IMG/VR virus record: IMGVR_UViG_3300042975_000097
Reading direction: 5' to 3' (one strand)
Source of the DNA: a virus
Taxonomy: Duplodnaviria; Heunggongvirae; Uroviricota; Caudoviricetes
Length of the DNA: 64,000 bases
Positions 1,845 to 46,606 of this stretch are shown here, in pieces. The number at the start of each line of letters is the position of its first letter. Within the stretch, counting starts at the first letter, position 1. Under the pieces are notes generated by a model, which was not told the origin of the DNA, searched no databases, and saw only the letters and a list, made by a program, of their open reading frames with translations. Both the position numbers and the translations under genes were made by a program.

Positions 1845-3719
1845 TCACTTCTCGCGGGCCAGCAGTCCCTGACGCTCAAGCCCATTAACAGTGCGCCGCA
1901 CGGTCCTCACGTACGGCAACGGGTACACGGTCCCATCATCATCCGACTCATCAAGACTCGCCAGGTACACGGCACCCTTATCACCGGCCCACTCGCGGAA
2001 CCCGGCGAGCGCGGCCTCGTACTCATCATCCCCGTTCATCACGGCTACGGCATCCGCGTACACGAGCACCCGGTCACCGTGCCCGTTCGTGAGCACCATC
2101 GACCTGCCGTTAGTGACGGCCGCGGCAAGCGCCGGGCCAGCGGCCGCCAGCGATTCGGTGCTCACCACGTCATGTGTTCCATGAGCAAGCGCGATGACCC
2201 CAGCGATATCACTGGGCGCAGTGAACGCGCTGGTGAACACGTCCGCGTCATCGGCCAGCGCCTTGAAACCGACGCGGTAGTACCGCAGGTTCCCCGGCAG
2301 CGGGTCATGCTTCTTCCCATCGGCCCAGTCCTCACCAGTGAGTACACGGCGCATGCGAACCGCCGTCACGCTGCGAGCGATGCCGTTCTCCGCGCCGTCC
2401 TGCTCGTAATTATTCGTCACGAGGATTGCACGGCGATGCCCGCCATCCTCCTTGTTCAGCTCCGCGACCGCCTGTCCCGTGGTGCCGGAACCGGCGAAGA
2501 AGTCAAGGACAAGAGCATCCTTGGAAGGAGAACCTATTCTGATGATATCTTTGACGTACTTGGCCGATTTTGGTGAGGAAAACACCTTGTTTCCAAAGAT
2601 ATCCGAGAATATTCGCCCCCCGGCTGTCGTGCTATATTCCGGTCTTTCCCAGACGCTCTTTGGTTTAATGGTTCGCTGCGAACCACCTGACTCCAACCTC
2701 ATCTTTGTATAAAGCACAATACCCCCATGCTGTCTCTTTGCGACGACCTCTGATGCACTGTTAGCGATGAACGTTTCCTTTCCCCATCGCCAGCGGCCCT
2801 CTTCGCCGTTAATCTTTGGATAGACACTAAGCGCACCGTCGAAAGGCTCGGCCTCTATGCGAGATAGATCTTTCGACACATAGATCGGATAATACATCCT
2901 TGGGCGATCTGTTCGAAGCGAGTTCTTCCCACTCTTTTTCAATCCGACGAGCTTATACCTTGATATACTGTCGTGTTCTTTATACTCTGCAATCTGCTCC
3001 TCTAAGAGGGGGAACTCGGCTAACTGCACCGATTTCTCATCCTTTGCGTATACTATAAGATATTCATGTGAAGTCGCTATATGTTTGTCGTCACTACGAC
3101 CCGACCTATTATTAATCGCCGTGATGTTCGCCACGAAATTGCCCTCCCCGAACACCTCGTCCATGAGCACTCTCAGGTACGCTTGCTCGTGATCATCAAT
3201 GCTCACGAAGATCACGCCATCGTTCGTGAGCAGTTCCCGCGCGAGGACCAGTCGCGGGCGCATGAACGACAGCCACTTACTATGCCGGTACGAGTCCTCC
3301 GGGTCAACGAACCTGTCATTATACACGAAGTCCTGGTTACCCGTGTTGTACGGCGGGTCGATGTAGATCACGTTCACCTTGCCCGCGTGCGTGGCTTGGA
3401 GCATGGTCAGCGCGGTCAGGTTATCGCCCTCGATGAGCACGTGATCATCCTCGATGGCGCCGGTCTTCACCGTGGAGTGCGCGGGGTCCGCGGTGAGCAC
3501 GGGCACCTCCCCGTTCAGTAGTCTCTGCGCGTCGCCGGTCTCGGGAATGGTGTTGTACGCGAGGCCGAGGTGATGACCGATGGCGAGCAGCCGTTCCTGG
3601 TCCTTGATCGTGGCATCCTGCGCGCGTAGCCTCTCGGCCTGCGCGTCGATGATTGCTTGCAAATCGTTGGCGTTGTTGTGGTCATCAGTGTTGTTGCTTA
3701 TCATTCCCGTGTTGGTCAT
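1845..3719 (-). CDS. mod: Type III RM Mod subunit, N6-adenine DNA methyltransferase (beta class)
   Basis: Motif IV VIYIDPPYNTG precedes motif I DFFAGSGTTGQA (beta-class order); 624 aa; immediately followed by res on the same strand. Confidence 0.85.
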   Translation of the reverse strand: MTNTGMISNNTDDHNNANDLQAIIDAQAERLRAQDATIKDQERLLAIGHHLGLAYNTIPETGDAQRLLNGEVPVLTADPAHSTVKTGAIEDDHVLIEGDNLTALTMLQATHAGKVNVIYIDPPYNTGNQDFVYNDRFVDPEDSYRHSKWLSFMRPRLVLARELLTNDGVIFVSIDDHEQAYLRVLMDEVFGEGNFVANITAINNRSGRSDDKHIATSHEYLIVYAKDEKSVQLAEFPLLEEQIAEYKEHDSISRYKLVGLKKSGKNSLRTDRPRMYYPIYVSKDLSRIEAEPFDGALSVYPKINGEEGRWRWGKETFIANSASEVVAKRQHGGIVLYTKMRLESGGSQRTIKPKSVWERPEYSTTAGGRIFSDIFGNKVFSSPKSAKYVKDIIRIGSPSKDALVLDFFAGSGTTGQAVAELNKEDGGHRRAILVTNNYEQDGAENGIARSVTAVRMRRVLTGEDWADGKKHDPLPGNLRYYRVGFKALADDADVFTSAFTAPSDIAGVIALAHGTHDVVSTESLAAAGPALAAAVTNGRSMVLTNGHGDRVLVYADAVAVMNGDDEYEAALAGFREWAGDKGAVYLASLDESDDDGTVYPLPYVRTVRRTVNGLERQGLLAREK

Positions 3720-3884
3720 GCGGGCATTATACCGGTGCGCGCACGAGTGGGATCGCGTACTGATTCTCTTCGCCTATCGACGTCGGTTATGCAGGAGAAT
3801 CGTTCACTATTGAGACCACCCCAAAACCGCGTCATCGCCCTCTACGTGGCTTACAGCTTGCGGCCGCCGCCGATGCCAGCGCGG

Positions 3885-4244
3885 TCAGACTCCCGAGTAG
3901 GAATCATGCTCATCATCCATGAGCGAGCGTTGGCGCTCGTACTCCTTGTCGGCGGCGACGGCATCGGCGCCATCGTAGAACGTGATGCGACCCCACTCGC
4001 CGGGGACAGGCGGTGCGGCGAAATCGGGGTTGCCGTCCATGTCGTCGATGCGGACCACACGGTAGGATTCGCCGGCATCGCCGCCGTTCGTCTCCGGGGC
4101 CGGCACGGTGACGTGGAGAAGGGCGAGCGTCTCCACCACCGGTTCATCATCGCTGAAGTCCACTGCATGTTGTTTCAACAGTTCCATCGATTGCCGCCTT
4201 ACCGCGCAGTCCGCGCTTTCCGCATTCATTACATGATCAAGCAT
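3885..4244 (-). CDS. hypothetical acidic protein
   Basis: 119-aa ORF, protein-like composition, no recognisable motif. Confidence 0.35.
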   Translation of the reverse strand: MLDHVMNAESADCAVRRQSMELLKQHAVDFSDDEPVVETLALLHVTVPAPETNGGDAGESYRVVRIDDMDGNPDFAAPPVPGEWGRITFYDGADAVAADKEYERQRSLMDDEHDSYSGV

Positions 4245-4461
4245 AGCGCGTCGCGTGGAATGACACGCCGTGCCGCGCTGGCCCCGTTATTGCTCATCAA
4301 GGTTCCGCATGTCACAGGGATTCGCAGTCGGCGCCGGTGACCGATCCCGGACGCCGTGATACCATGGAAGTCATGAGATTAGACGTATTGAAACTGCGAG
4401 AGTCGATAACGGCCGGAGACCTGCGCTACATCACGGTCATGCGTGTCGAACGGCCGCGAGC

Positions 4462-5286
4462 ATGACGGCGAGAACCGATTCCGTCGATGCCACGGGGTGG
4501 GAATACGAGACCGTGCCGACTGATGATGGAATCATCCACATCGTCAGCGGCGGGCTCGCGCGCGACCAGGGTGACGTCACATTAATCGCCCGCAGGCTAG
4601 AGGCGGCAGGCAACGGCGACTGGTTAATCTCTCCGGATGGAACCATCCTCGCGCACAGGCTGGGAGCGGCTGGACTCTCCGGCGCCAGATGGAGGTGCTC
4701 GATCATAAGGCCGCGGGGCGGCGGTTTGACGTTCCGTTACGTCTGCGGTTCCGGCCCCGGAATTCTGCCGCCATGCTCTATCGTTGCGAATGGTTGCGCC
4801 GGTACGGGGGAGCCGGAGAAAGGCTTCTACCGCACTCTCCCCATCATCAGGCATGGCATGAGGATAGGCGAGATCATCGTCGATGACAACGGCGACGGGT
4901 TCACGGTAGCCGGCGCCGCGATGACGTTCGGAGAACGGCTCGACCGCGCGGTCAGGCATTGGAGCCACATCGTCACGCGCCGCCCGTGGACGTTCGCGGA
5001 TCGCATCATCATCAAGCGGAGCGTGGCCGACCCGATTCCAGTAGGCCACACTCCGGTGGTCACGGCGTCGACGGCGCTCGTTCTCGTTCGTGCGGACCTG
5101 TACGCGCTGCGATTCAACGAGCGCCGATACATGGACATCGACGGGAACGCCCGCATCGACGTCGTGAACGAGATCGCGCGGACGTTCCCGGATGCGACCG
5201 CCGCGATGGTGAACGGCGCGATCGCGGATCTTGATCCGGCTGCTGCGAGCGCGATGCTTGCGCGGATTCAGGAGTTGGAACGATAA
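4462..5286 (+). CDS. hypothetical protein
   Basis: 274-aa ORF. The middle section is R/G-rich, so an internal frameshift is possible. Confidence 0.35.
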   Translation: MTARTDSVDATGWEYETVPTDDGIIHIVSGGLARDQGDVTLIARRLEAAGNGDWLISPDGTILAHRLGAAGLSGARWRCSIIRPRGGGLTFRYVCGSGPGILPPCSIVANGCAGTGEPEKGFYRTLPIIRHGMRIGEIIVDDNGDGFTVAGAAMTFGERLDRAVRHWSHIVTRRPWTFADRIIIKRSVADPIPVGHTPVVTASTALVLVRADLYALRFNERRYMDIDGNARIDVVNEIARTFPDATAAMVNGAIADLDPAAASAMLARIQELER

Positions 5287-5337
5287 CCTCGGCTGCGACG
5301 CTGGTGCTATCCTCGGACTTGTGGTACGATTATCGGT

Positions 5338-6105
5338 ATGGGACTTGATCAGAGTTATCTTGGCGAAGAGTACAGCGCGAACTTCGTACTACAGTCCGTG
5401 GTGCGTCACGTGACGGGCAACGACAAGGCCGGCTACCCCTGCTCGGTGCCGGTCACCGTCGGGCAGGCGCGTCGCGCGGACGCCATCATCCGCTCCATCG
5501 CCGCCGGCACGCGGGCGGGCGACGATGACGCCGAATCGCTCGCCGAGCATATCAGACATGGGTTTTCGACCGGCGACTATCATCACTACGATGCGGAGAA
5601 CGCGCTCGCCTTGACATGGCATGTCGTTGATGACGCCGTGCGGTCCGCGTTCGACGCCGCGTGGTCCACGGCCGCAGACCACGCCATCGCCGCGGCATTC
5701 CCCGAATCCGATGGGCTGACTCTAGACGGGGTGTTCTACGCCACGGCCCACACGCGCATGCTTACGCTGGACGAGCGCACGCTGGTCGATGACGCTCGCG
5801 CGCACGGGCTCTGCAGGCTGGCGTTCGCCAGCGTGTTCACCGCGGAACTCGCTTGCAACGGGATCACGGCGACGGACTCGGAGGTGGAGTCATACTACTG
5901 GCTGGCACGATTGCGGCTCGCCGGCTACGATTACCCGCAGGAGGGCGAGTGGCCGTTCGCGGACGATGCCGACCCGCGCTGCCCGCTGGCGGCGAAGGCG
6001 CGCGCACGGGTTCGCGGCATCATCACCGCGCATCATGATGACGGGTGGGACATCCTTCGACTGCGCGATCATGATCATCATGTCCTACAGTACTCGGAGT
6101 ACTGA
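5338..6105 (+). CDS. hypothetical protein
   Basis: 255-aa ORF with protein-like composition. Confidence 0.45.
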   Translation: MGLDQSYLGEEYSANFVLQSVVRHVTGNDKAGYPCSVPVTVGQARRADAIIRSIAAGTRAGDDDAESLAEHIRHGFSTGDYHHYDAENALALTWHVVDDAVRSAFDAAWSTAADHAIAAAFPESDGLTLDGVFYATAHTRMLTLDERTLVDDARAHGLCRLAFASVFTAELACNGITATDSEVESYYWLARLRLAGYDYPQEGEWPFADDADPRCPLAAKARARVRGIITAHHDDGWDILRLRDHDHHVLQYSEY

Positions 6106-14709: not shown

Positions 14710-15579
14710 TCACGACCAGCGGCCGGTGTTGTAATCGATGGCGTGCCCGTTCGCGTAGTTCCACACGACCACATGCTGATCGATGCTCCCATCGCTGCTC
14801 CTGACGTCCACCGTGGCGCCGCGGGCGACGATCTCGTTGCCGAAGTAGATGGGATTCACGTAGTACAGCACGGTCGCCCCGTGATTCGCCTTGAGCAGGT
14901 TGCGCACCTCGGTCTCCGTGAACGCCATGCCGCCGGGGTTGGCGGAGTTGTCGCCGACGTTCTGCGTGCGCGTCCCCGTGATGATGTTCTTCCTCGATGA
15001 CGCGCCGCCCAGCGAGTCCGCTATCAGATGCGAGCGGTTATAGAAGTAGCCGCGGTACGAGCGGCCGTTGTCAAGCGCTATCGTCGTCTCATGGTTATTG
15101 CTGCGCCCGTCGGCGTACCAGCCGCTGACGCCGCTGACGTCCGCGTCGAACTTCGCCCGCCAGCCGGCCGACTTCTCGTACATGTCATACGTGAGGTTGC
15201 CGTGCGCGTACCCGGTTCGCCCAAGACCGTCGATGCCCTGATAATCGACTGTTCCGGCAGCCACGGGGGCGTCTGGGAGAACGGCCTTGCCGGTGACCTT
15301 GTAGTAGTTCGGCGCGATGTCGTTCGACCACGCCGACAGCATCGTGGCGTCGCTGGTCGGCGCCGCCGACGATTGCGGGCTGGTAGGCTTCGCGGACGGC
15401 GAGGTCTGCGCGTCCGTCGATGATGATGACGGCGCTGATGCCGACGCTCCGCCCGCGATCGTTGACGATTGCCCGCCCATGTCGGCGGTGTCGGCGCACG
15501 CGCTCATCCCCGCCATCATCGCGATGGCGGCGATCGCCGACGCGATGCGCGCGATTCCCATGCCCGTTGCTCTCCTCAT
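14710..15579 (-). CDS. secreted/lipoprotein DNA/RNA non-specific endonuclease (NucA/EndA-like, Endonuclease_NS_2-type)
   Basis: Signal peptide with lipobox-like MMAGMSAC. Ser/Ala-rich linker. Motif NRSHLIADSLGG resembling the DRGHL nuclease motif. Confidence 0.5.
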   Translation of the reverse strand: MRRATGMGIARIASAIAAIAMMAGMSACADTADMGGQSSTIAGGASASAPSSSSTDAQTSPSAKPTSPQSSAAPTSDATMLSAWSNDIAPNYYKVTGKAVLPDAPVAAGTVDYQGIDGLGRTGYAHGNLTYDMYEKSAGWRAKFDADVSGVSGWYADGRSNNHETTIALDNGRSYRGYFYNRSHLIADSLGGASSRKNIITGTRTQNVGDNSANPGGMAFTETEVRNLLKANHGATVLYYVNPIYFGNEIVARGATVDVRSSDGSIDQHVVVWNYANGHAIDYNTGRWS

Positions 15580-18180: not shown

Positions 18181-18456
18181 AGTAGCAAAACCGATATGTA
18201 ACAGTTATCATGCCCGGTTATTCTCTACTAGAGAAAACAACTGACTTACAGGATATAATATCATTATACCACATGTTCAGATTATGGGTCACCTATGTCT
18301 ACGGAAGTAGGCGTTATTCTGGTGAACTGTCCTTCCATAGACGGTCATTGGCGTTCCGACCCTATTATGGTGTATGATTTCGCGCAGACCGTCATCGATG
18401 GCGCGCGACCGACATCGTGAGTGCAATATTCCATCAGGCGAGAACAGTTCGCGGAC

Positions 18457-18467
18457 GGGGGGGGGGG
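18457..18467 (+). repeat. homopolymeric G11 tract 8 nt upstream of ATG 18475
   Basis: GCGGAC-GGGGGGGGGGG-ACATCAT-ATG. Candidate slipped-strand phase-variation site in the RBS/5' region. Confidence 0.9.
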
Positions 18468-18474
18468 ACATCAT

Positions 18475-19044
18475 ATGAGCAGCATAATCACACATGAACC
18501 GGGCGGCACGGCCGCAGCCGGGGTCACGTCGACGATCGCGCGCCCGTCTGCGCCGAGCGGTTGGCGGCACGGCGCCGCGTGGACGTACGGCGTCATGCTC
18601 GCGGCGTCCGCCGTCGCGTTGTTCGTGTCGTTCATCCTCTCCGCGGAGACCCTACAACTGGCGCGACACCCGAGGCAATCGCTCAGCCGCGACATCAACG
18701 CAGTGCTCTCATGCTCGGCGGCCGCCGGCTCATGGCGGTCGGAGATCGTGAAACTGGGGACGCTGAGCGTGCCGAAGGCGTTCATAGGCATCGCCGCCGA
18801 GTCGGTCCTCGTCACGCTCGCCGTTCTCGGCATGATCCGCGTCAGCGTGCCGAGGTGGTTCACCGTGTGTACGTGGCTAGGCGGGCTGGCGGCGCTCGCG
18901 TACGGCCTACTGGCTGTTCAGCCAGTCCATGTTCGTCATTCAGGCGTTGTGTCCGTGGTGCCTTGTGCTTATGTTCTCCACGACCGTCCAGTTCATGGCG
19001 TTGTCGCACGCGACCGTCACCGTCCGCCGCGTTCCCGGCCATGA
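18475..19044 (+). CDS. hypothetical membrane protein
   Basis: MSSIITHEPGG... with several TM helices. A GTG at 18421 is in frame through the G tract, so the start is ambiguous. Confidence 0.45.
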   Translation: MSSIITHEPGGTAAAGVTSTIARPSAPSGWRHGAAWTYGVMLAASAVALFVSFILSAETLQLARHPRQSLSRDINAVLSCSAAAGSWRSEIVKLGTLSVPKAFIGIAAESVLVTLAVLGMIRVSVPRWFTVCTWLGGLAALAYGLLAVQPVHVRHSGVVSVVPCAYVLHDRPVHGVVARDRHRPPRSRP

Positions 19045-19263
19045 CCATCACCCCGTGGCGTCAAGACGGCTGGACGCGTATTATCGTCTTCGTTATGACC
19101 TCATGGTCGATGTGGTCGTAGTGCTCGCGCTCGCGGCCATCATACTGGTGCGCGATGGCGCCGCCATATTCCGATGAATCACGGGCACGCACGCACTGGC
19201 CAGCGCCGTTCGCGGTCGTGGCCGGTCGGTGGGGACGATAACGCCGCCGGCTACCGATCACGA

Positions 19264-19412
19264 TGACGCTCTACGTCGATTACGCTCACACGACAAGTAA
19301 ACGCTTGCCGTATGAGCGTATTTTTTGTGTGACGTCGTGAAAACGGCGTTTTCGATGTGACCATCGCAAAACAGTATTCTGTCGTTCTACGTGGCTTACA
19401 GCGCGCGTGGCT
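19264..19412 (-). repeat. copy C of the ~140-bp structured repeat (inverted), abutting the Dcm promoter
   Basis: Reverse complement matches copy A (...GCTGTAAGCCACGTAGAACGAC...AATACGCTCATACGG...CGTGTGAGCGTAATCGACGTAGAGCG). Confidence 0.7.
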
Positions 19413-19443
19413 CACTGCCCGCGCAAGTTGATATAATGCCCGT

Positions 19444-22353
19444 ATGACCATGAAATACATCAGCGTGTTCAGCGGGATCGAAGCGGCCACGGCCGCATGG
19501 TCGCCGCTGGGATGGAAACCGCTCGCGTTCAGCGAGATCGAACCGTTCCCGAAGGCGGTGCTCGCCGCCCATCACCCGGACGTCCCCGACCTTGGGGACA
19601 TCACGAAGGTCGACTGGTCCCCGTACGCGGGCAAGGCCGACGTGCTCGTCGGCGGCAGCCCATGCTTCCCGGCGGGCACGCTGGTGCTCGCCGCGGACCG
19701 GTTGACGCCCATCGAGGACATCCGGGTCGGCGACATGGTGCTCACGCATCGCAACCGTTGGCGTCGTGTGACGGCGGTCGGCTCCAAGACGTCGGCGACG
19801 ATCACGGTCGCCAGCGATGGCGTTACCGTGGAGTGCACACCTAACCACCCGTTCTACGCCGAGTCCGATGAAGGCGCCGACTCTCCCCGCGAGTGGGTGC
19901 GCGCGGACGCGATGGCCGGCCGTCGCTGGCTCACCGTGAACGCGCTGGCGGACCCGCTGCCCACGCCGGCCATGGTGAGCGCCGATGGCGAGGCTGGTCG
20001 AACGTTCGAGGTCGTGGGCCGGGCGCTAGCGAGCGGCGGCGACGCGGACGTGTATCATCGCGGCTGGGCCTGGCTGTTCATCCGCGCCGACGGGCCGACG
20101 GTGCCCGCGTGGGTGTTCGCCGCTCGCGTGGAGTGGCGCGCAGCGCTGAGCCGCGGGTATCATGCGGTCGCCAGCGGTTCGCCGACCCCTGCGGTCGTGG
20201 CGGCCATGCGCATCATCGACGCCGGTCTTCACGGGAACGACGCGGATGGTGATTGGGGAAGCGTGCGATCGTTGTCACGTTCGCGCGATCATGTCAAAGT
20301 ATATAACCTGGAGGTAGAGGATGACCATAGTTACACAGCGGACGCTATCGCAGTTCACAACTGCCAGTCGTTCAGCATCGCCGGAACAAGGGCAGGGCTC
20401 AACGGGGCCAGCGGGCTCATGTGGGAGTATGTCCGGGCGGTTCGAGAACTCCGTCCTCGTTGGTTCCTCTGGGAAAATGTCCCGGGGGCGCTCTCCAGCG
20501 CGCATGGGGAGGATTTCAGATGTCTCCTCACGAGCATGGATGAGCTCGGGTATGGTCTCTCATGGCGAGTACTGGACGCGCAGTTCTTCGGAGTGGCCCA
20601 GCGACGCCGTCGCGTGTTCCTTGTCGGACATCTTGGAGACGAACGCTCCGGCGAAGTATTATTTGAGCCCGAGAGCCTGCGATGGGATACTCCGTCGAGC
20701 AGAGAAAAGAGGGAAGGCCTTACCCGAGGAACTCAGAACGGCGTTGGAGAAGCAAGCGAACCCCGACTGAACCACCATACATGGGAGATCGCCGGGAACA
20801 TCATCGGCAGGCAGGAGAAGAACGGCGGCCATCAATTAGGCATCGTCGACCCCGATAAGACCGGCGCGTTCACGCTCACGACCGCCGACAGGCACGCGAT
20901 CGCTGATTGCCTGACTCCATGGGACAATCAGGGACGCCGACTGTACCGCCCGGATGGCGTATACCCGGCATTGGATGCGAGGACCGGCAACGCGGGCGGC
21001 GACGCGCGGGCGGTGATGACGAACTACGGAAGCGACATCGCCGGCACGCTCACGCGCCGTTACGATTCATCGCCGTGCGCGGACCGCGGGCAGAACATCG
21101 TGCTCGCAGCCGGTTTCAGCGCCGGCCAATCGCAATTTGCCGGCTCGATAGGGTACGAGCACGAGATGACGCCGACGCTCAGGGCGAGCGGATCGGGAAC
21201 GAATCAAGTGCCGACGGTACTGGTGAAGACCGATGACCCGAAGCGCGATCAGCCGACGATCGCGTTCGCCGCTAACCAGCGTGATGAGGTGCGCGACCTT
21301 CATGACCTTGCGGGAACACTCGCCGCCCAGCCGGGAATCAAGGGGCAGACGTACGTTATTCCCGAGAACGCCGCCGACCCGGTGCGCGATCGAGAGGTCG
21401 AGATGCGTAACCTTCATGACCCGGCCGCCGCGATCGCCGCCGAATCAGAGGAATCCACCATCATGTGCCGCGCGGGCGGTCAGGTGAACAGCGAGACCGA
21501 CCGTGACCTGTCGCCAACGCTCACCACGCATGACGCCAAGGACCCGCATATCATATACCCCGAGCGTACCGGCGCATGCTCCGTGCTCCGTATGCGCGCG
21601 GGGTGCGCGGGCGTCGGCAAGGATGCCCTGATTCAGAACGACGCCAGCGGCACGCTCGCGTTGAACAACGATCAGACGCTGTTCCCTCCGCACGGCGGCA
21701 TCCGTCGACTCACGCCGATGGAGTGCGAGCGGCTCCAAGGATTCCCTACGAGAGTGAAGCTTGACGTTTCGGCAATGACCGAGGCCGACATCGCCGCGAA
21801 TCTGCTCGCCGGCGGCGTCATCGCCATCGACCTTGACGATGACGCCGTCCACGCGCATACGGCCGATGGCGATCAGGTGGTCACGACCCCGTTCGTGGAC
21901 GCTATCATGGACGGCGCGCATCACCGCATCCGCACGGACAGGCTCGCTTACCAGTTCGCTTTCGGCGCCATCCCCGATGGCATGGTCATCGTCCATGACG
22001 ATCATGACGAGTCGAACAATCACCCCGACAACTTGTCGCTGGCGCCCGTGGACGATGCGCCCGCGACCGATGACGGGTCGGCCGTCGATGCGCCGACGGT
22101 GACGATGCCGGTCTCGTTCACGCATGATTACATGTCATCATGGTCGACGTACCGTGATCTGGCCGCGTGGTACGGCATCGATGGCGAGCGTATCGACTCC
22201 ATCGTCAGCGAGCGCGGCTGGACGGACATCCCGTGGCATGGCAAGGATCACGCGGCCGACGCGCCGAGGTACCGCGCGCTGGGCAACTCCATGTGCGTTC
22301 AGGTGATGCGCTGGCTTGGCGAGCGCATCGCCCGCGCCGATGCCATGGACTGA
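19444..22353 (+). CDS. Dcm-type DNA cytosine-C5 methyltransferase precursor with an intein in motif IV and an HNH-like insertion between motifs IX and X
   Basis: Extein motifs: I VFSGIEAA; IV GGSP|intein|CQSFS; VI WENVPG; VIII QRRRVFLVG; IX RRLTPMECERLQGFP; X YRALGNSMCV. HNH-like VHDDHDESNNHPDNL at roughly 21960-22040. Leaderless-type promoter TTGATATAATGCCCGT-ATG. Confidence 0.8.
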   Translation: MTMKYISVFSGIEAATAAWSPLGWKPLAFSEIEPFPKAVLAAHHPDVPDLGDITKVDWSPYAGKADVLVGGSPCFPAGTLVLAADRLTPIEDIRVGDMVLTHRNRWRRVTAVGSKTSATITVASDGVTVECTPNHPFYAESDEGADSPREWVRADAMAGRRWLTVNALADPLPTPAMVSADGEAGRTFEVVGRALASGGDADVYHRGWAWLFIRADGPTVPAWVFAARVEWRAALSRGYHAVASGSPTPAVVAAMRIIDAGLHGNDADGDWGSVRSLSRSRDHVKVYNLEVEDDHSYTADAIAVHNCQSFSIAGTRAGLNGASGLMWEYVRAVRELRPRWFLWENVPGALSSAHGEDFRCLLTSMDELGYGLSWRVLDAQFFGVAQRRRRVFLVGHLGDERSGEVLFEPESLRWDTPSSREKREGLTRGTQNGVGEASEPRLNHHTWEIAGNIIGRQEKNGGHQLGIVDPDKTGAFTLTTADRHAIADCLTPWDNQGRRLYRPDGVYPALDARTGNAGGDARAVMTNYGSDIAGTLTRRYDSSPCADRGQNIVLAAGFSAGQSQFAGSIGYEHEMTPTLRASGSGTNQVPTVLVKTDDPKRDQPTIAFAANQRDEVRDLHDLAGTLAAQPGIKGQTYVIPENAADPVRDREVEMRNLHDPAAAIAAESEESTIMCRAGGQVNSETDRDLSPTLTTHDAKDPHIIYPERTGACSVLRMRAGCAGVGKDALIQNDASGTLALNNDQTLFPPHGGIRRLTPMECERLQGFPTRVKLDVSAMTEADIAANLLAGGVIAIDLDDDAVHAHTADGDQVVTTPFVDAIMDGAHHRIRTDRLAYQFAFGAIPDGMVIVHDDHDESNNHPDNLSLAPVDDAPATDDGSAVDAPTVTMPVSFTHDYMSSWSTYRDLAAWYGIDGERIDSIVSERGWTDIPWHGKDHAADAPRYRALGNSMCVQVMRWLGERIARADAMD
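19663..20361 (+). other. intein (233 aa, Hint domain, no obvious LAGLIDADG motif)
   Basis: Starts CFPAGTLVLAADRL (block A) directly after GGSP. Ends VYNLEVEDDHSYTADAIAVHN followed by C of CQSFS (blocks F/G, HN + Cys). Confidence 0.7.
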
Positions 22354-22375
22354 CCAGTAGGTGCACGCCCGGCAT

Positions 22376-22440
22376 GACAACGACGAAGCGCCGTGAGCAC
22401 GACTCGAAATCGTGTTCACGGCGCTTCGTCGTTGTCATCG
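22376..22440. terminator. long near-perfect palindrome (25-bp stem, 11-nt loop) between convergent genes
   Basis: GACAACGACGAAGCGCCGTGAGCAC-gactcgaaatc-GTGTTCACGGCGCTTCGTCGTTGTC, one mismatch. Generates the mirrored artefact ORFs 22205-22438 and 22167-22544. Confidence 0.5.
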
Positions 22441-22492
22441 CTGGCCTTCGCCGGCATCCTTGCTCATGCGCGCGTCGGCAGTGTCCGCAGCG

Positions 22493-22831
22493 TTATCGTC
22501 CACCGTCGAGCGCGCTGACGTCGATGCCGGCGTCAGCGAAATGACGGCGGATGATGGCGTCGAGCGGACCGCCGTCCGGGATCATGCCGACGGGTTCGCC
22601 TAGACCATCGGCCTCCACGGGGATGACGGACCAGCCCTCGCGCTGGTTCGCGTATCGTCTGATGGCCATCTTCGTCCGCAGCGGCGATCGGACCACGATC
22701 GTGTACACCGTCGGCAGTCCGGCTGCGTTCTCCGCGGTCGGCTCGCTCATCGGCCTGACGTCGAACAGCACGGTCTCGTCGATCGTCATGGAATGGTTAC
22801 TTGTATGCTTCTCGTTGTTCTTGTTCATGTG
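22493..22831 (-). CDS. hypothetical small protein
   Basis: MNKNNEKHTSNHSMTIDETVLFDVRP.... No RBS evident, start uncertain. Confidence 0.3.
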   Translation of the reverse strand, partial: HMNKNNEKHTSNHSMTIDETVLFDVRPMSEPTAENAAGLPTVYTIVVRSPLRTKMAIRRYANQREGWSVIPVEADGLGEPVGMIPDGGPLDAIIRRHFADAGIDVSALDGGR

Positions 22832-23195
22832 GCCTACGATAGCATCGATCGGTTCGCGACACGCCGGCGAGCGCGGATTGGTCACACGCTCGGCATCATG
22901 GCCAGCAGGGCGCTGACCCCATTGGAATCGTCGGCTCCGAAGCGGCGTTCCAGCCATCCATCCATGGTCGTGCTGAAATTCAACGCGGCATCGAGCGCCC
23001 ACACCGCCGTCCTCGTCAACGGGTCGTTCGCGTCGATGCGGTCGCCGCACGCCATTGATTCGCATACGACCCGGATGCCGGCGGCGGCGTCAAGTGGTCG
23101 CCGGCACCGGGAACGCGATGGGCGGCCGACCCCGTTATGGAGTCCGACCGCCCATCATCTGATCTTACCGACCGGGCATCACCCGATCACGCCGT

Positions 23196-24431
23196 TCAGT
23201 ATTCCATGTCACCGTAGTCGGCGGCGGCGGCATCATACGATTCATAACCGGCCGCTTTGACGACGCTCGGGGATACCAGCTGCCCGTTGGCGCACCGTTC
23301 GGCGACGTCATCCGTGAAAGCGGCCCATGACGCCTTGTCGCGATGCGCCCGCGCCCATGCAAGCACCAGATTCGCATCGGTATCGTAATTAAGTTTACGG
23401 ATGTAGGCGACGTTATCGCCGTGGCTGGTGAGTTTGCCGGCGAGCGCGTGCTTCTGCTCGTCTGTCAGCTTCACCGACCGGTCGATCATATCGACGTAAT
23501 CCTTCGCCTTCACGCCTTCTGGTCGTTCGCGGGCGGCTGCCGACCTCGCGTACAGATGTAGCCGATCATTGGCGAACCATACCCCCGAACCGTAGGCATT
23601 GGTCATGTCGCGAACCGTCCAGTGGACCTTCCTGAGCGCGTACCGTGTGATGGCCTCACGTTTCGGGTTTTTCGTCCCGCCGTATGCCGGTGTGTAGCCG
23701 GCGATGCGGCTGAGCGACAGCCGGTGCTGGTTGTCCTTCCCGGTCCTGTCGATGATGCGCTGGGAGAGTGCTATCGACGAGCCGTGATCGCCGTCGTCAT
23801 ACCCTGCCGACCGGACGTGCGCGCGTTCCACCGAGTTGACGGGCTTGTCGGCATCGTAGTCGATGAGGTCGTTCGCCAGTTCCGGGGTGATATCGTGGCG
23901 TTCGGCGAGCCGAGCGGCGAACTTGTATCCAAGCCAACGACGGCCATGCTGCCCGCGCACCATGTCCATGGCATCCTCGTCACCCGATGGACCATCGATG
24001 TCGATGCCGTCGGCGAGTATTTCCAACGCCTCGTCATGACGGGAGGCCAGTTCGTCCTTCCTGTATTCTTTCTCCGTGCTTGTGATGCTGACCGCGTTGA
24101 ACGCGGCGTACAGGGACTCGTTATCGTAATCGCCGGACTTCACGAGGTCGCGCAGGTCGCTGATGGCGGCATCCGCCTCGGTTATCTCGGCGTCGACCAC
24201 GGCGCGCCAGCGTTCGGCCTCGGCGTCCTCACGACGCTGCTTCGCTCCCTTGCGCATGACGCCGAGCTTGACGGCGTAGAGTTCGTTGTACGCCTCCATG
24301 TATGCCTGCGCCTGATCCTTGGTGTACTCCTTATGCTCCGTGTGGTACGGGCATTTCGACTTGTCCTTCGCGCGGCACTGGCTGATGGACTTGTCCGCCT
24401 TCACCCCGTATGTGATCTTCTGCTCGGTCAT
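23196..24431 (-). CDS. hypothetical protein with N-terminal Cys/His motif (CRAKDKSKCPYHTEH)
   Basis: RBS AGGAGG 6 nt before ATG (MTEQKITYG...); 411 aa. Confidence 0.5.
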   Translation of the reverse strand: MTEQKITYGVKADKSISQCRAKDKSKCPYHTEHKEYTKDQAQAYMEAYNELYAVKLGVMRKGAKQRREDAEAERWRAVVDAEITEADAAISDLRDLVKSGDYDNESLYAAFNAVSITSTEKEYRKDELASRHDEALEILADGIDIDGPSGDEDAMDMVRGQHGRRWLGYKFAARLAERHDITPELANDLIDYDADKPVNSVERAHVRSAGYDDGDHGSSIALSQRIIDRTGKDNQHRLSLSRIAGYTPAYGGTKNPKREAITRYALRKVHWTVRDMTNAYGSGVWFANDRLHLYARSAAARERPEGVKAKDYVDMIDRSVKLTDEQKHALAGKLTSHGDNVAYIRKLNYDTDANLVLAWARAHRDKASWAAFTDDVAERCANGQLVSPSVVKAAGYESYDAAAADYGDMEY

Positions 24432-35959: not shown

Positions 35960-36120
35960 TTGACTTCTCCCCACGGCTAAAACCGGGGGATTCCAAGCCC
36001 TAGTGAGACATGCGCCTCCGGCACAGCGTCCGGGTGGCGTCTTACGGTCTCATGGGATTCAGGGACAAGTCCTGCCCTGGTGAGCATGTTCACAGCCGCG
36101 TTCTTATCACGGTCCTTCAC
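35960..36120 (-). ncRNA. predicted omega RNA of TnpB (scaffold over the tnpB 3' end and right end)
   Basis: Placed by established TnpB biology. The conserved right-end sequence shared with copy 3 supports a structured 3' element. Confidence 0.35.
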
Positions 36121-37245
36121 CATTCCGCAATATCGGCAACGGTACACGCGCTCCTTTAACCCGATTGGGGGATTGGCTATCTCCCCGCATTCGGAGCAGG
36201 TCTGCGTGGTGTACGCCGGGTTGACCGGAATGAATCTACGACCGTTCTTAACGGCTTGCCAATGCAGTATTTGGATGTCCATGGCGATGGCGGCATCTTG
36301 GGCGTTACGCGCCATGGTGGTTTTCGACAGGAACTTCGGTTTGAAGTCCTCACTGGCGATGATGTCGTTGCGTTCGCACACGCGTTTCGCCCATGTGTGG
36401 GCGATGGTGAGGCGTTGCGCCGCTATGCGCTGGCAGAGTTTTCGATATTGTGTTCTCGCTTTCTTGTAGCCTTTCGACTGGTTCGGATACCTAACGCCTT
36501 TCTTATGTCTGCGTGCCATACGTCGTTGCAATCCGGCCATTTGACAGTGGCGTATCCTCTCGAATCCCATATGCGGGAAATCGTCTGGGGAGTTTTCGGA
36601 AATCTCGCCTGTCGAAAGATTCATCCCGACCGTCGAGGCGGTGGTCTCGACGCCCCAGTCAATACCGACCGCGTGTCCCGTTTCCGGGAGTGCTTTCACG
36701 TCCGTTTCGACTACGAACGAGGCGTACCAGTGTCCGTCCGGGGATTTGTATACGCGGACGCTCCTGGGTTGCGAGGGCAGTTTTCGGGACCATACAACGG
36801 GGATGAGCACTTCCTTCGGCAGTTTGAGTCGGGTTTTCCCGTCCTGCTCCACGAGCTTGAATCCGCCGATGCGATAATTGAGGGACGGCAACGTGATCTT
36901 ACGGCTCTTATACCGTGGCATTCCCGATTTGCGTTTCCTTGTGGGCGACTTGCGGTCGGAGACCGCTTTCCCTCTGGCTTGACTATAGTCTCTGACTATC
37001 TGCTGTTGGGGTACGCACGAGTGCCCGGCGAGCCATTTATCGCCGTTTCCGTCCGTTCTGCTTGCCCTGAGAAAGGTGAGGTGCTTCTGCGCCTGTGCTG
37101 CGCCGAACGTCTCGCCCCGTTCGTACCGTGCTTGGGATTCGTCCACCATACGGTTCCATACGTACCTGCATGCATCCCATTCGGCAACCAGGTATTGTTC
37201 CGCCTGCTCGCCGGGGCGCAGCCTGTACTTGTATCGAACCTTCAT
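35977..37245 (-). CDS. tnpB: TnpB RNA-guided endonuclease
   Basis: Start MKVRYKYRL (ATG 37245), preceded by TGGTATAAT. RuvC motifs, zinc finger CSECG...CRYCGMVKDRDKNAAVNM. Confidence 0.85.
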   Translation of the reverse strand: MKVRYKYRLRPGEQAEQYLVAEWDACRYVWNRMVDESQARYERGETFGAAQAQKHLTFLRASRTDGNGDKWLAGHSCVPQQQIVRDYSQARGKAVSDRKSPTRKRKSGMPRYKSRKITLPSLNYRIGGFKLVEQDGKTRLKLPKEVLIPVVWSRKLPSQPRSVRVYKSPDGHWYASFVVETDVKALPETGHAVGIDWGVETTASTVGMNLSTGEISENSPDDFPHMGFERIRHCQMAGLQRRMARRHKKGVRYPNQSKGYKKARTQYRKLCQRIAAQRLTIAHTWAKRVCERNDIIASEDFKPKFLSKTTMARNAQDAAIAMDIQILHWQAVKNGRRFIPVNPAYTTQTCSECGEIANPPIGLKERVYRCRYCGMVKDRDKNAAVNMLTRAGLVPESHETVRRHPDAVPEAHVSLGLGIPRF

Positions 37246-37477
37246 GCAAATCATTATACCACAGTACGCGCAGAACCAACACAACGCATAAGAAAGGGGC
37301 GGCTTACCCCAGTCTTAAAAGGCGGGGCTTGCGCCGCCATTGCCGGTCATATCCTCCTGATAGGTGTTATCAACAGCCGACCGGCGGCCGCCATGTACGA
37401 TGGCGATCGCCGACCGGCATGACACCAATGATAGCACGAACCGCCGACCAGTACCGCGGCGCGCCGGCGACGGGCGT

Positions 37478-38588
37478 TCACGACTTGGTTTTCAATAGGT
37501 ACTTGTTGCTTATCGACTTGAAGTGGCGCCAATCGTCGGCCATCCTGTTCACGGTCGGCCCATCGTAACGCCACACGATGCCCTCGGCGAGTCTTGCCGG
37601 GTTCAGCGCCGACCTGACGCCATCGGAGGCGGCGATGATCGCGTCCACGCCATCGTCAGCGGTCATGTTCTCGCTCAACGGCAGTCCGACCGCGCGCTGC
37701 GGCACCGTGATGTCGGCGAGACCGTACCCGTCGGCGTAGGGGTCGATTCGGCACCCGTCGATGACGAGGTTGAACGCGTGGAACTCGAGGGATCGCGCGT
37801 CGAGCCTGTTGCCGAGGATGCCCGGTCCCGTGGACTCGCCCTGTATGACCACGGAGGAGGCCCCCGTGTCGGCTGCGATGGCGTCCAGCCGGTCACGAAT
37901 GGAGTACGCTTCATAATTGTCCCAGTACGGGTTGTGGACGCTCACGTCGACGCGCTCCACGCTCGCATCATGCGAGCACACGCCGTACTCGGTCTCGTCA
38001 TCGCGCTCCACGCGGTAGTACGTCGTGCTCATGCCGTCCAGCTTCTCGCTGCCGTGGTAGGCGGCGGCGACGTCGAGGTGGCCATCGAGCATCCATGCCA
38101 CCATGTCGGTGAGGTCCTGTATGCGCTGCTCGTCGGTCCTCGTGATGAACCCGGGGAATCCGCCCAGACGGGCGCCGGGGATCTCGATGAGCGGCTGCTC
38201 GTACTTGTGGACGTGTAGCGCGGCGCTCACGTCGGCGCCCTCGGGGGTTCCCGGATCGATGCCGAGCTCCGCCGGCGACATGACGAGTCCCTGCGACAAC
38301 TGGCCGCGAAGCTTCACGCTCCGCAGGATGACGCAATCGACGCCATCCGGATTCACGCCGTGCGCGCCACGGCCAGCGAGCGCGGCGAAATCGGGACGGT
38401 CCAGCGGCAGCATGGAGTCCGGCTCGAAGTACACCACCTTGTCGCCGGCCTTGAACTCGTCGCGCCCGATGACGACGGGCCAGCCGCCGACGCGGGCGAC
38501 CGCTATCCTGTCCGCGTTCGGTATCCGATCGACCCTGCTGATGATCCTGACCGTGGCCAGTTTGCGTGCGCTTGTCGTTCCCGTCATG
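37478..38588 (-). CDS. ATP-dependent RNA ligase family protein (Rnl, DRB0094/NgrRnl-like)
   Basis: RBS GGGAGA before ATG (MTGTTSARKLATVRII...). N-terminal OB-like region ...IPNADRIAVARVGGWPVVIG..FKAGDKVVYFEPDSMLP. Nucleotidyltransferase motif I SEKLDGMS. Confidence 0.55.
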
Positions 38589-38601
38589 ATTGATCTCCCT
38601 A

Positions 38602-39250
38602 TCATTCGATGATTCCCTCTCGATGATAGCACCCGCCGGCGATCGGCGACGGGACCACGGAGCGGGCGCGGAGCCAACGCCCGATGGCATCGCCGTCACC
38701 GCTCTCGTAATAGCGCACGAGCGACGCGCGGAACGCCGGGTCGGCGCCGTCCGGGATCATGAACAGGCCCGCGCCCGATCGGACCATGACGTGGTTGGCG
38801 GCCATGATCGCCGTGCGCTTGTTCCCGTCCTCGAACCACTGGCCCCCGACATACGGTCAGGAACAGCCTGATGGCGCGCTCGCGAGCGTCACCGGGAGCG
38901 GTCGCCGACGCGATGGCGGCGCGGGCATCGTCGAGCGTTGGCATCGCCGGCGTCCATCCCGTGCCGGTCATGCCAACGGGGAAGCGTCTCATGGCGCCGG
39001 GCTCACGGGTGAGACCGGCCGTGAGAAGACGGTTGTACTCGGATATGTGCGCCCAATCGACGGCGGGGTCGGCGTCGTCGGCGAGCAGGAACGTCCACGC
39101 TGCGGCGACGTTCCGGATGATCAGGATGTCATGGCCGCCGGCGGCGTCGGCGCGGAGCGCGCGGTTCACGTCATCGAGGGTAACCGTCGGCATTTCGATG
39201 CGCGCGCATGACCATATGAGCGCGGCGAGGTCACACGCCGTCATCATCAT
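38602..39250 (-). pseudogene. Fic/Doc-family gene interrupted by a frameshift in a G5 run
   Basis: Removing one G (plus C5 at 38843-38847) joins ...AIRLFLTVCRG to QWFEDGNKRTAIMAANHV... (Doc-type FxDGNKRTA motif, with Q in place of H). Confidence 0.5.
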
Positions 39251-45465: not shown

Positions 45466-46491
45466 TCATCTGCGTGCGGTACGTCTTTGCTGATTGTCCT
45501 TATCGAACGTCTTCCACTGTTCTATGCTTATGCTCCTGTCTATTGAGTTGACTCTTCTCGTCGCCCATTTATTGTATTCGGTGTTCTCATCGCATGCAAG
45601 CCATTGTCGGTGAAGCTGCGATGCGGTGACCGCCGTGGTTCCTGAACCTGAGAATGGATCGAGTATCATGTCTCCGTCATTGCTTGATGCAAGTATGAGT
45701 TTCCTGATGAGTTCTTCCGGTTTCTGGGTCGGGTGCGGAGTCTTTTCATGCATGCCATTGCAGGTCGTAGGTATTTCTATCACGTCCTTTGGTTTTGCCC
45801 CTCTTGGATTCGGTGTCCAGTGCTGATCATCGTTTCCATATTGTGATGAATCGGCTTGTGGATGATCCGGATATTTCAGCGTGTGATTTCCGTATGGAAT
45901 GCGTACATCATCATAATTGATGTGGCTGAAATCCTTTTTCCGAAGATGGAGGATGCTTTCATGCGATCTTCCCCAATCCTTTCCCAGGTTCGCCTTGTTC
46001 CTATAGAACCAGACCAGCCATCTGCATGAATCGAAGTATTCCATTGCGGGATGTTTGATATCCGCTAGTATTTCACTGAATCCACATACGTAGAGGCTCC
46101 CTGTTGGTTTAAGTATTCGTGACGCCTGTGAAATCCATTGCATCGACCATGATATATACTGCTCCTGTGATGCGAAATTATCCCATGCGGCTTTTCCGAT
46201 ATTGTATGGTGGATCTGCAAATACCATATCAATGCTCTCGTCCTTAACATTATGTAGCCATTGTATGCTGTCTCCGGTGAATAACGCCCCGTCTTGGAAT
46301 ACGGTTAGATCGACTGGCGGTGCTGGCCGGCATAAAAAGAATGGCGCAATGTCGAGCGGTTCGTCTTGCTGAATTTCGTCGCCTTTGACTGTTCGCCATG
46401 TAGTCATCAGGTACCTGCTTTCGTTCAAGTCTTTTATTCTTCGGTTTTCCATGATGCCATTGCCGACAAATGTCGGTGATGGCATTTGTAT
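45466..46491 (-). CDS. DNA methyltransferase, beta class (N6-adenine or N4-cytosine), orphan
   Basis: DPPYNIG (motif IV) upstream of LDPFSGSGTT (motif I). Lies in a low-GC island with no adjacent nuclease gene seen. Confidence 0.7.
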   Translation of the reverse strand: MQMPSPTFVGNGIMENRRIKDLNESRYLMTTWRTVKGDEIQQDEPLDIAPFFLCRPAPPVDLTVFQDGALFTGDSIQWLHNVKDESIDMVFADPPYNIGKAAWDNFASQEQYISWSMQWISQASRILKPTGSLYVCGFSEILADIKHPAMEYFDSCRWLVWFYRNKANLGKDWGRSHESILHLRKKDFSHINYDDVRIPYGNHTLKYPDHPQADSSQYGNDDQHWTPNPRGAKPKDVIEIPTTCNGMHEKTPHPTQKPEELIRKLILASSNDGDMILDPFSGSGTTAVTASQLHRQWLACDENTEYNKWATRRVNSIDRSISIEQWKTFDKDNQQRRTARR

Positions 46492-46606
46492 TCTCGATAT
46501 GCTGAATATGAACATGATGATTGAACTACGTATGGTGTTCCATTGAAAACAGTCCGAGCCTAGACGGACAAATTGACCGCCCGCGATCATACGCCGCGGC
46601 GCGCGG

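Follow-up and report, generated by a model that had tools for sequence, protein, structure and literature searches.

The 64,000-nucleotide stretch analysed here (the window; IMG/VR virus record IMGVR_UViG_3300042975_000097) contains a 969-codon open reading frame (ORF) which, in the reading we consider likely, encodes an orphan, probably multispecific cytosine-C5 DNA methyltransferase carried by an uncharacterised mobile or extrachromosomal element and colonised by two independent selfish elements: an intein placed at the catalytic cysteine, and the relic of an HNH endonuclease lodged in frame between motifs IX and X. Residues are numbered on the 969-residue precursor and coordinates are collected in Table 1.

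Two profiles identify the host enzyme. DNA_methylase (PF00145) matches the ORF in three stretches at 1e-46 (160 bits, Pfam cut-off 22), and dcm (TIGR00675) matches at 1e-45 (157 bits, NCBIfam cut-off 100.65). Motifs I, IV (PCQ), VI (ENV), VIII (QRR), IX and X are all present and in order, motif IV becoming contiguous only once residues 74 to 306 are conceptually removed, after which it equals that of intein-free homologues; the mature enzyme is thus predicted to have 736 residues. No second PCQ motif was found elsewhere in the protein, the sole other "PC" being part of DSSPCADRGQN (residues 541-551), a piece of the variable region that also occurs in intein-free homologues having a PCQ motif of their own.

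The interrupting segment has the anatomy of a class-1-type intein. Hint_2 and Intein_splicing cover residues 73-306, the first at 30 bits (Pfam cut-off 28.4) and the second at 26-31 bits, under its cut-off of 35.8, while intein_Cterm (TIGR01443) matches residues 285-307 at 33 bits (NCBIfam cut-off 15.6) and the bacterial intein-like domain 2lwy of the PDB matches at 4.6e-5. Block A reads C74-FPAGTLV, block B T132-P-N-H135 (19831-19854) and blocks F/G VYNLEVEDDHSY..AVH305-N306 (20293-20361). A scan of genome collections retrieved intein-free Collinsella and Candidatus Aphodovivens homologues with an uninterrupted VVGGSPCQSFSVAG (empty site in L004-L008), and these fix the intein boundaries exactly. 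Since the uninterrupted Collinsella homologues read GGSPCQSF, the +1 residue of the intein is the catalytic cysteine itself. C74, T132/H135, H305-N306 and C307 do not vary among 12 relatives with identities down to 56%, and a protein search returned more than 100 metagenomic clusters (785-860 residues, about 45% identical), all with the intein at the same site. The original prediction, made from the letters alone, had proposed a Dcm-type methyltransferase split at its PCQ cysteine by a 233-residue intein; the profile matches, the junction residues, the Hint_2 match with its A, B, F and G blocks, and the search for another PCQ motif all bear this out, and the empty-site homologues confirm its limits to the nucleotide.

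Mechanistically, we propose that translation, perhaps of a leaderless mRNA, yields a precursor with a PCQ loop split by 233 residues and hence no methylating activity. An N-S shift at Cys74, attack by Cys307 (trans-esterification) and cyclisation of Asn306 would then join Pro73 to Cys307, restoring the PCQ loop (GGSPCQSF) and with it an active enzyme. Because the catalytic cysteine adjoins GGSP only after splicing, we infer that methylation requires splicing, and the host enzyme would depend on continued splicing of the intein. The 736-residue product would methylate several targets, shielding the element from host restriction, while the relic of the HNH nuclease and its helix-turn-helix (HTH) domain would stay as an extra domain in a surface loop between motifs IX and X, tolerated by the fold. 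The full-size versions of this module, of about 177 residues, would probably be the active homing form, and that of the window clade a fast-diverging relic.

The best indirect evidence that splicing works in this clade comes from selection on the exteins. The ratio of nonsynonymous to synonymous substitution rates (dN/dS) was estimated by the Nei-Gojobori method on five sequences, namely the window gene and four recovered orthologues with 74-82% protein identity. Values are 0.00-0.23 for the N-extein, 0.02-0.24 for the catalytic core and 0.00-0.10 for the C-terminal extein, with a relaxed 0.25-0.52 for the intein. Such strong constraint on the exteins, in a clade where all members carry the intein, suggests that a functional enzyme is made and that splicing therefore occurs. 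The HNH insert gives 0.28-0.64 overall, with 0.10-0.22 for its core in the more divergent pairs and up to about 1 and above for its N-terminal part and linker.

The intein itself is probably of the splicing type and no longer mobile, as judged from its relatives in phages. A tblastn search of GenBank phages located homologous inteins under annotated C5 methylase genes, and the junction GG[ST]P/CF.AG...VVHN/CQ (slashes marking the splice sites) was confirmed in four translated genes: the P1-like dmt of OP279344 (a record named Escherichia phage P1), Propionibacterium phage B22 gp50, EBPR siphovirus 2 gp44 and Mannheimia phage 587AP2 gp35. In all four the insertion point is identical to that of the window gene and the Hint blocks are homologous. 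Further intein matches lie under genes annotated as methylases, namely the dmt genes of RCS47 and Ro157c2YLVW and the methylase genes of Lactobacillus phage Nyseid, the E. coli jumbo phages A4 and ph0011, and Pseudomonas phage Lana. The phage inteins have 322-376 residues and both LAGLIDADG motifs intact (..GDG.., ..DG..), with a LAGLIDADG_3 Pfam match in the P1-like and B22 inteins, whereas the 233-residue window intein has lost the acidic residues of both motifs together with about 100 residues, and neither the window gene nor protein P0007 gives a LAGLIDADG match in Pfam. With this domain decayed, the intein would now be an immobile passenger, inherited vertically. The HNH module was not seen in the four translated phage genes, three of the four reads ending before motif X. 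Intein matches in mycobacteriophages were rejected as the same allele, being weak (8e-4) and located in a different methylase/helicase gene.

Two further observations concern intein relatives. In Mannheimia phage 587AP2 (gp35/gp34; L022 1489-3325) the methylase ORF ends just past the +1 cysteine of the intein (CQSDKGG..) and the remainder of the methylase is annotated as a separate gene. In Eggerthellaceae and Coriobacteriaceae genomes, a free-standing homologue that is 46% identical (L010 5893-7074; also L012 and L013) sits between unrelated chromosomal genes, with only about 17-44 residues before Cys1 and five residues (CALVR) past the terminal HN; it may represent an intein that was orphaned or domesticated, or all that is left of a deleted methylase.

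The second insertion was delimited by empty-site relatives, which read RLQGFPDDYTDIP where the window gene has RLQGFP, 157 residues and WTDIP; at the DNA level the insert-free allele has a junction of the type ..GAGCGGCTCCAGGGCTTCCC/GGACGAC.. (slash at the insertion site). The insert matches HNH_3 over residues 832-868 (4.8e-9; 36-39 bits, Pfam cut-off 24.8) and PHROG HNH endonuclease families at about 1e-6. An insertion of some 175 residues with an HNH-like signature, VHDDHDESNNHPDNL, had originally been placed between motifs IX and X: its existence and position stand on the evidence of the empty-site relatives, its size is corrected to 157 residues, and the quoted string is the HNH_3 core itself. 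The histidine and two asparagines of the signature are conserved, H851, N859 and N863-L864 being invariant in an alignment of 35 sequences.

This module belongs to an I-HmuI-like family whose members combine a beta-rich N-terminal part, HNH_3 and an HTH. A word-index search with the window insert alone returned one fragment, and an exhaustive phmmer search of 1.84 billion representatives was needed to reveal the same module near the C-terminus of diverse C5 methylases. The carriers P0125, P0126, P0130, P0135, P0138, P0140 and P0144 combine DNA_methylase with HNH_3 and often with a Sigma70_r4-like HTH (Pfam); the full-size module, about 177 residues long, always lies between ERLQGFP and [WY]T..PRYKxxGNS. 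A search with an insert profile collected 106 proteins, most of them C-terminal methylase pieces on short contigs. About 54 match the whole profile at E <1e-43, and 30 of these also match PF00145. No curated phage or plasmid record showed the methylase::HNH arrangement, the family being known from about 50 metagenomic clusters; among stand-alone proteins in curated collections it comes closest to phage HNH endonucleases and plasmid NUMOD4 proteins, with identities of about 27-35%. One candidate, a Pantoea plasmid "Dam" protein (H156), was rejected as an insert-free fusion of C5 and Dam methylases that matches motifs IX-X only. In a rough neighbour-joining tree of methylase cores, drawn without support values, genes with the HNH module and genes with the intein fall into several separate lineages, empty alleles lying between them, a patchy distribution that fits gain and loss of mobile elements.

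Among the HNH-bearing relatives other arrangements of the host gene were seen. In several of them (proteins P0179-P0199) motif X runs directly into motif I of a second C5 methylase, giving tandem fusions of the form ..ATLGSLFDGIGGF..WASEIEEFPIAV... On L029, a phage-like contig with ERF and SSB genes, a related C5 methylase (3634-5750) is split into two ORFs with a stop/restart overlap (..TGATGATGATGG..), and it is the second ORF that encodes the final recognition units together with motifs IX and X and a full-size HNH module between them. The pair may form a natural two-subunit enzyme.

The second insert has the marks of neither an intron nor an intein. No Rfam intron was found at E<=1 in window positions 18500-23500 or in L029 3600-5800, the only matches being weak "miRNA" hits, spurious because of the hairpin after the stop codon. 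The 471-nucleotide insert is filled end to end by the protein module, which is in frame with both flanks in 35 of 35 aligned sequences, and in the five orthologues the frame is unbroken and the insert free of indels. Residues 769-925 show no Hint similarity and no nucleophile/HN junction residues (C/S/T...HN-C/S/T). A group I or group II intron is made very unlikely by the missing Rfam match and by the protein module filling the insert, and a second intein by the missing Hint match and junction residues. Being without intron or intein features, the HNH insert is most likely retained in the mature enzyme, a fate also argued for the ShiLan and LAGLIDADG insertions in actinophage methylases (PMC9957025, PMC11855218). 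Separate translation of the HNH part from the conserved Met778 was considered and dropped: apparent starts there in P0170 and P0172 are contig-end cuts, L030 continues upstream of the equivalent methionine ("..WSEDMTKDE"), and the window clade has no Shine-Dalgarno-like sequence before Met778.

The nuclease active site is incomplete in the window copy. Compared on its own with PDB sequences, the window insert gave no meaningful match, and the full-size insert of P0126 was needed to reach I-HmuI (1u3e), to which it aligns at 1.4e-5. Through this alignment the D-H, the N of N(L) and the N of "ENS" in the family correspond to D74/H75, N87 and N96 of I-HmuI. The window copy keeps H851 (H75) and N863 (N87), but V850 replaces D74 and A872 stands at the position of N96, so that the complete I-HmuI active site (D74, H75, N87, N96) is not present. 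The "ENS.KA" helix with the N96 equivalent, invariant in about 30 full-size members, is deleted in the window clade, as is the RGPGG..GY hairpin, lost through a 13-residue deletion. Between the window gene and P0126 the inserts are 31% identical and the methylase cores 72%. An AlphaFold model of residues 745-969 (mean predicted local distance difference test score, pLDDT, 68.5) consists, in order, of a helix, five beta-strands, the HNH beta-hairpin, a low-confidence segment and a three-helix HTH; the HTH and the beta-strands score about 70-83, and residues 874-890 (model residues 130-146), where the active-site helix should follow, fall below 50. The best PDB match of the model is again 1u3e, with a weak E-value of 0.013, a probability of 1.00 and a root-mean-square deviation of 2.8 A over 85 columns. 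From these sequence comparisons the HNH nuclease is probably dead in the window copy, and the module may persist as an appendage that is tolerated or that binds DNA.

That the HNH-HTH module is instead an exapted working domain, for DNA binding or targeting or, in the full-size family, for methylation-coupled nicking or cleaving, seems to us unlikely, though worth keeping in sight. Under this alternative the carriers could be single-chain restriction-modification enzymes, or the module a Vsr-like nickase for the T:G mismatches that arise from 5-methylcytosine deamination. The indel-free frame of the module in five orthologues, the low dN/dS of its core, the confidently predicted HTH and beta-strands, and the recurrence of one module at one site across many methylase lineages with H851, N859 and N863 kept would all be accounted for by a retained function. 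However, its architecture is that of an I-HmuI-type homing endonuclease and its closest free-standing kin are phage and plasmid NUMOD4/HNH proteins, its distribution is patchy among close methylase relatives, and insert-free close relatives keep strongly conserved methylase motifs. In the window clade, moreover, the segment with the metal-ligand helix is missing, and the module diverges much faster than its host. A bolder version, in which the in-frame module defines an undescribed bifunctional class of C5 methyltransferase-nucleases that methylate and also nick or cut DNA, the window copy keeping the DNA-binding part only, appears to us quite improbable. If true, members of the class could act as self-contained selfish restriction-modification units, methylation-coupled homing devices or Vsr-like repair nickases.

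We also weighed the possibility that the intein is a regulatory switch, its conditional splicing (through the redox state of a Cys74-Cys307 disulfide, temperature or DNA) timing methylation after entry into a new host. The intein does interrupt the one residue whose release catalysis needs, it persists in a large family despite a dead endonuclease, and cysteines occupy both splice-junction nucleophile positions. Insertion at conserved active-site residues is, on the other hand, a general pattern among inteins that is explained by the conservation of homing sites. As no evidence for conditional splicing was obtained, the dN/dS of the intein is relaxed and intein-free homologues exist in the same bacterial group, we regard such a switch as a long shot.

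That the whole gene is a non-functional relic, with the intein unspliced or the fold broken by the HNH insert, is very improbable indeed. Both inserted endonuclease domains are degenerate, one copy (P0006) is frameshifted and the homologue in the Mannheimia phage is interrupted directly past the intein; against this, the ORF is intact in five diverged orthologues whose exteins have dN/dS of 0.00-0.24, and none of the ten methylase motifs or of the splicing residues is damaged. Finally, HNH endonucleases of the I-HmuI type are often intron-encoded, a point in favour of removal of the second insert before maturation as a group I/II intron or an atypical second intein. We give that idea next to no weight, even though the ShiLan element discussed below was initially taken for a possible splicing element of this sort (PMC11855218), in view of the missing intron, Hint and junction signals and of a conserved protein module kept in frame throughout.

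Several points weigh against the reading we prefer, a working multispecific methylase invaded by an intein and an HNH element. The HNH core is under constraint in divergent pairs and the HTH is predicted to be folded, so the module may owe its retention to a function, DNA binding for instance, and not be pure junk. The HNH inserts are not more conserved than their hosts and give no direct sign of recent homing. Block F of the intein has an asparagine (VYNLEV) where many characterised class-1 inteins have aspartate, the position being N, D or S among the same-site inteins. The dN/dS values come from five sequences with few substitutions per sub-region, the neighbour-joining tree is a rough one, and the multispecific reading draws only on repeated TL-type units and cassette variation.

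With respect to specificity, the variable region contains six "x[TS]L"-centred units (residues 475-480, 533-538, 576-581, 623-628, 690-695 and 735-740), and relatives that are 74-90% identical differ there by insertion or deletion of whole cassettes of 20-60 residues. This suggests that target specificities are shuffled rapidly and that the methylase is probably multispecific. The best PADLOC model for the ORF is "orphan methyltransferase". Pfam, PHROG and PADLOC recognised neither a restriction partner nor phage or plasmid hallmark genes among about 25 neighbouring ORFs, and about 25 large ORFs around the gene have no match in these collections. The window is part of a 346-kb JGI metagenome contig (3300051660, Ga0527070_018) and has no tRNAs, and the 24 kb surrounding the gene had no megablast match at the nucleotide level in phage and plasmid collections. 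Relatives point to a Coriobacteriia-type (Collinsella-like) gut actinobacterium as the bearer of the element.

At its 5' end the gene has no Shine-Dalgarno sequence before the ATG at 19444. An extended -10 consensus, TGATATAAT, within window positions 19429-19446, ends 6 nucleotides ahead of this ATG, which suggests a leaderless transcript. The orthologues begin two codons further downstream, at MKYIS. Copy P0006, from another sample, is 90% identical and has its frame shift in the variable region. Past the stop codon, the near-perfect hairpin (arms of 43 nucleotides, 84% complementary, with an inner 27 bp containing one mismatch) is unique in the window; the RNA fold reaches -74.6 kcal/mol (z = -9.7) and there is no T-run. 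The hairpin probably ends or stabilises a transcript, and its assignment to the methylase unit is uncertain. Elsewhere in the window, 310 residues of the first N6/N4 methylase listed in Table 1 align to only 205 profile positions, so this protein may carry an insertion of about 100 residues; no Hint or HNH match was seen in it.

Table 1. Features of the methyltransferase gene and other annotated loci in the window
Feature	Position	Strand	Description
Whole ORF	19444..22353	+	969 codons open; precursor of the putative orphan C5 DNA methyltransferase
N-extein	19444..19662	+	Residues 1-73; motif I (FSGIEAAT) to first half of motif IV (VLVGGSP)
Intein	19663..20361	+	Residues 74-306 (233); Hint_2, Intein_splicing and intein_Cterm matches
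LAGLIDADG remnant of intein	20005..20178	+	"VVGRALASGGD", "LSRGYHAVASG"; from alignment with phage inteins
Catalytic Cys307 codon	20362..20364	+	Both +1 extein splicing nucleophile and PCQ catalytic cysteine
C-extein catalytic core	20362..20730	+	Second half of motif IV, VI (WENVPGA), VIII (QRRRRVFLVG)
Variable (target-recognition) region	20731..21693	+	Residues ~431-750
Motif IX	21703..21747	+	RRLTPMECERLQGFP
In-frame HNH module, I-HmuI-like	21748..22218	+	Residues 769-925 (157), between motif IX (ERLQGFP) and WTDIP/motif X
HNH_3 core	21919-22047	+	Preceded by a helix and a beta-strand-rich N-terminal part
HNH active-site stretch	21994..22059	+	From P0126-1u3e alignment and family alignments
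Disordered D/A/P linker of HNH module	about 22063-22113	+	
Three-helix HTH of HNH module	about 22114-22206	+	
C-terminal extein	22219..22350	+	WTDIP.., motif X RYRALGNSMCVQVMRWLG (22267-22320), tail
Long hairpin	22360..22452	.	7 nucleotides past the methylase stop, between convergent genes
N6/N4 methylase, orphan	1845-3719	-	624 residues
Endonuclease_NS (non-specific endonuclease)	14710-15579	-	
VKOR-like gene	18421-19044	+	
TnpB gene	35977-37284	-	
PHA02142-type RNA ligase	37478-38677	-	
N6/N4 methylase, orphan	45466-46590	-	
TnpB gene	58321-59781	+	
DUF285 protein	60734-62536	+	

With the catalytic nucleophile doubling as the +1 nucleophile of the intein, the gene would be a natural case of DNA methylation strictly gated by protein splicing, one that might provide a model of conditional splicing or the scaffold on which switchable methylases are engineered. 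The HNH family is more informative than the window copy, as it spans about 50 or more metagenomic clusters inserted in a single surface loop of C5 methylases, and its full-size members, set against the decayed copy, offer a testable system for how a host tolerates, and perhaps later exapts, a selfish nuclease. The window locus would represent an end-stage example, two dead endonucleases fossilised in one working gene.

The combination of an intein at the catalytic cysteine with an in-protein HNH domain had been put forward as an undescribed architecture, a claim that holds in part: each kind of insert has published precedents, inteins occur at the identical site in several GenBank phages, methylases with several inserts are described, and it is the in-frame HNH family that seems undescribed. 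C-5 methylases are listed among intein hosts in a survey of actinophages (bioRxiv 10.1101/2025.01.02.630785), and we found no paper discussing the catalytic-cysteine position of inteins in C5 methylases. A search of open-access text likewise found no in-frame I-HmuI-like HNH domain in the motif IX/X loop of these enzymes.

As to the host enzyme, the closest parallel in layout is offered by the multispecific C5 methyltransferases of Bacillus phages, M.SPRI, M.Phi3TI and M.H2I (Wilke 1988 and Lange 1991, as cited in PMC8936443). Like these enzymes, the window methylase has one catalytic core and a long variable region, with what may be several tandem target-recognising units, and is an orphan on a mobile element, a likeness of layout. 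The Bacillus phage enzymes are not known to contain an intein or an HNH module. The module itself resembles I-HmuI, the nicking HNH homing endonuclease that Bacillus phage SPO1 encodes in an intron, in that an HTH follows the nuclease core. Unlike I-HmuI or the free-standing NUMOD4/HNH_3 proteins, it is embedded in a methylase reading frame, and compared with I-HmuI the equivalents of D74 and N96 and the upstream beta-hairpin are missing from the window copy.

The actinophage methylases Dorothy_75 and ShiLan_65 combine an intein with further, non-splicing endonuclease insertions (Gosselin et al. 2023, PMC9957025; Arsenault et al. 2025, PMC11855218). The window gene shares with them in-frame, read-through insertions at conserved sites, devoid of splicing signatures, patchy in distribution and predicted to form separate domains. 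In Dorothy and ShiLan, though, the additional in-frame endonuclease is of the LAGLIDADG type, and the HNH gene of ShiLan is out of frame with the methylase; the window gene departs from this alternate-frame organisation, its HNH_3 match lying in the frame of the methylase, within the motif IX/X loop of a C5 enzyme. Intein-bearing mycobacteriophage methylases of the same phage clusters have been typed N6_N4_Mtase (Kelley et al. 2016), and on the strength of this typing the Dorothy/ShiLan family would not be C5. The present family thus extends the reports of homing endonucleases that persist in methylase genes with no splicing element of their own (PMC9957025, PMC11855218), from a LAGLIDADG domain in frame and an HNH ORF out of frame in the earlier cases to an in-frame HNH domain in what appears to be a different class of methylase.

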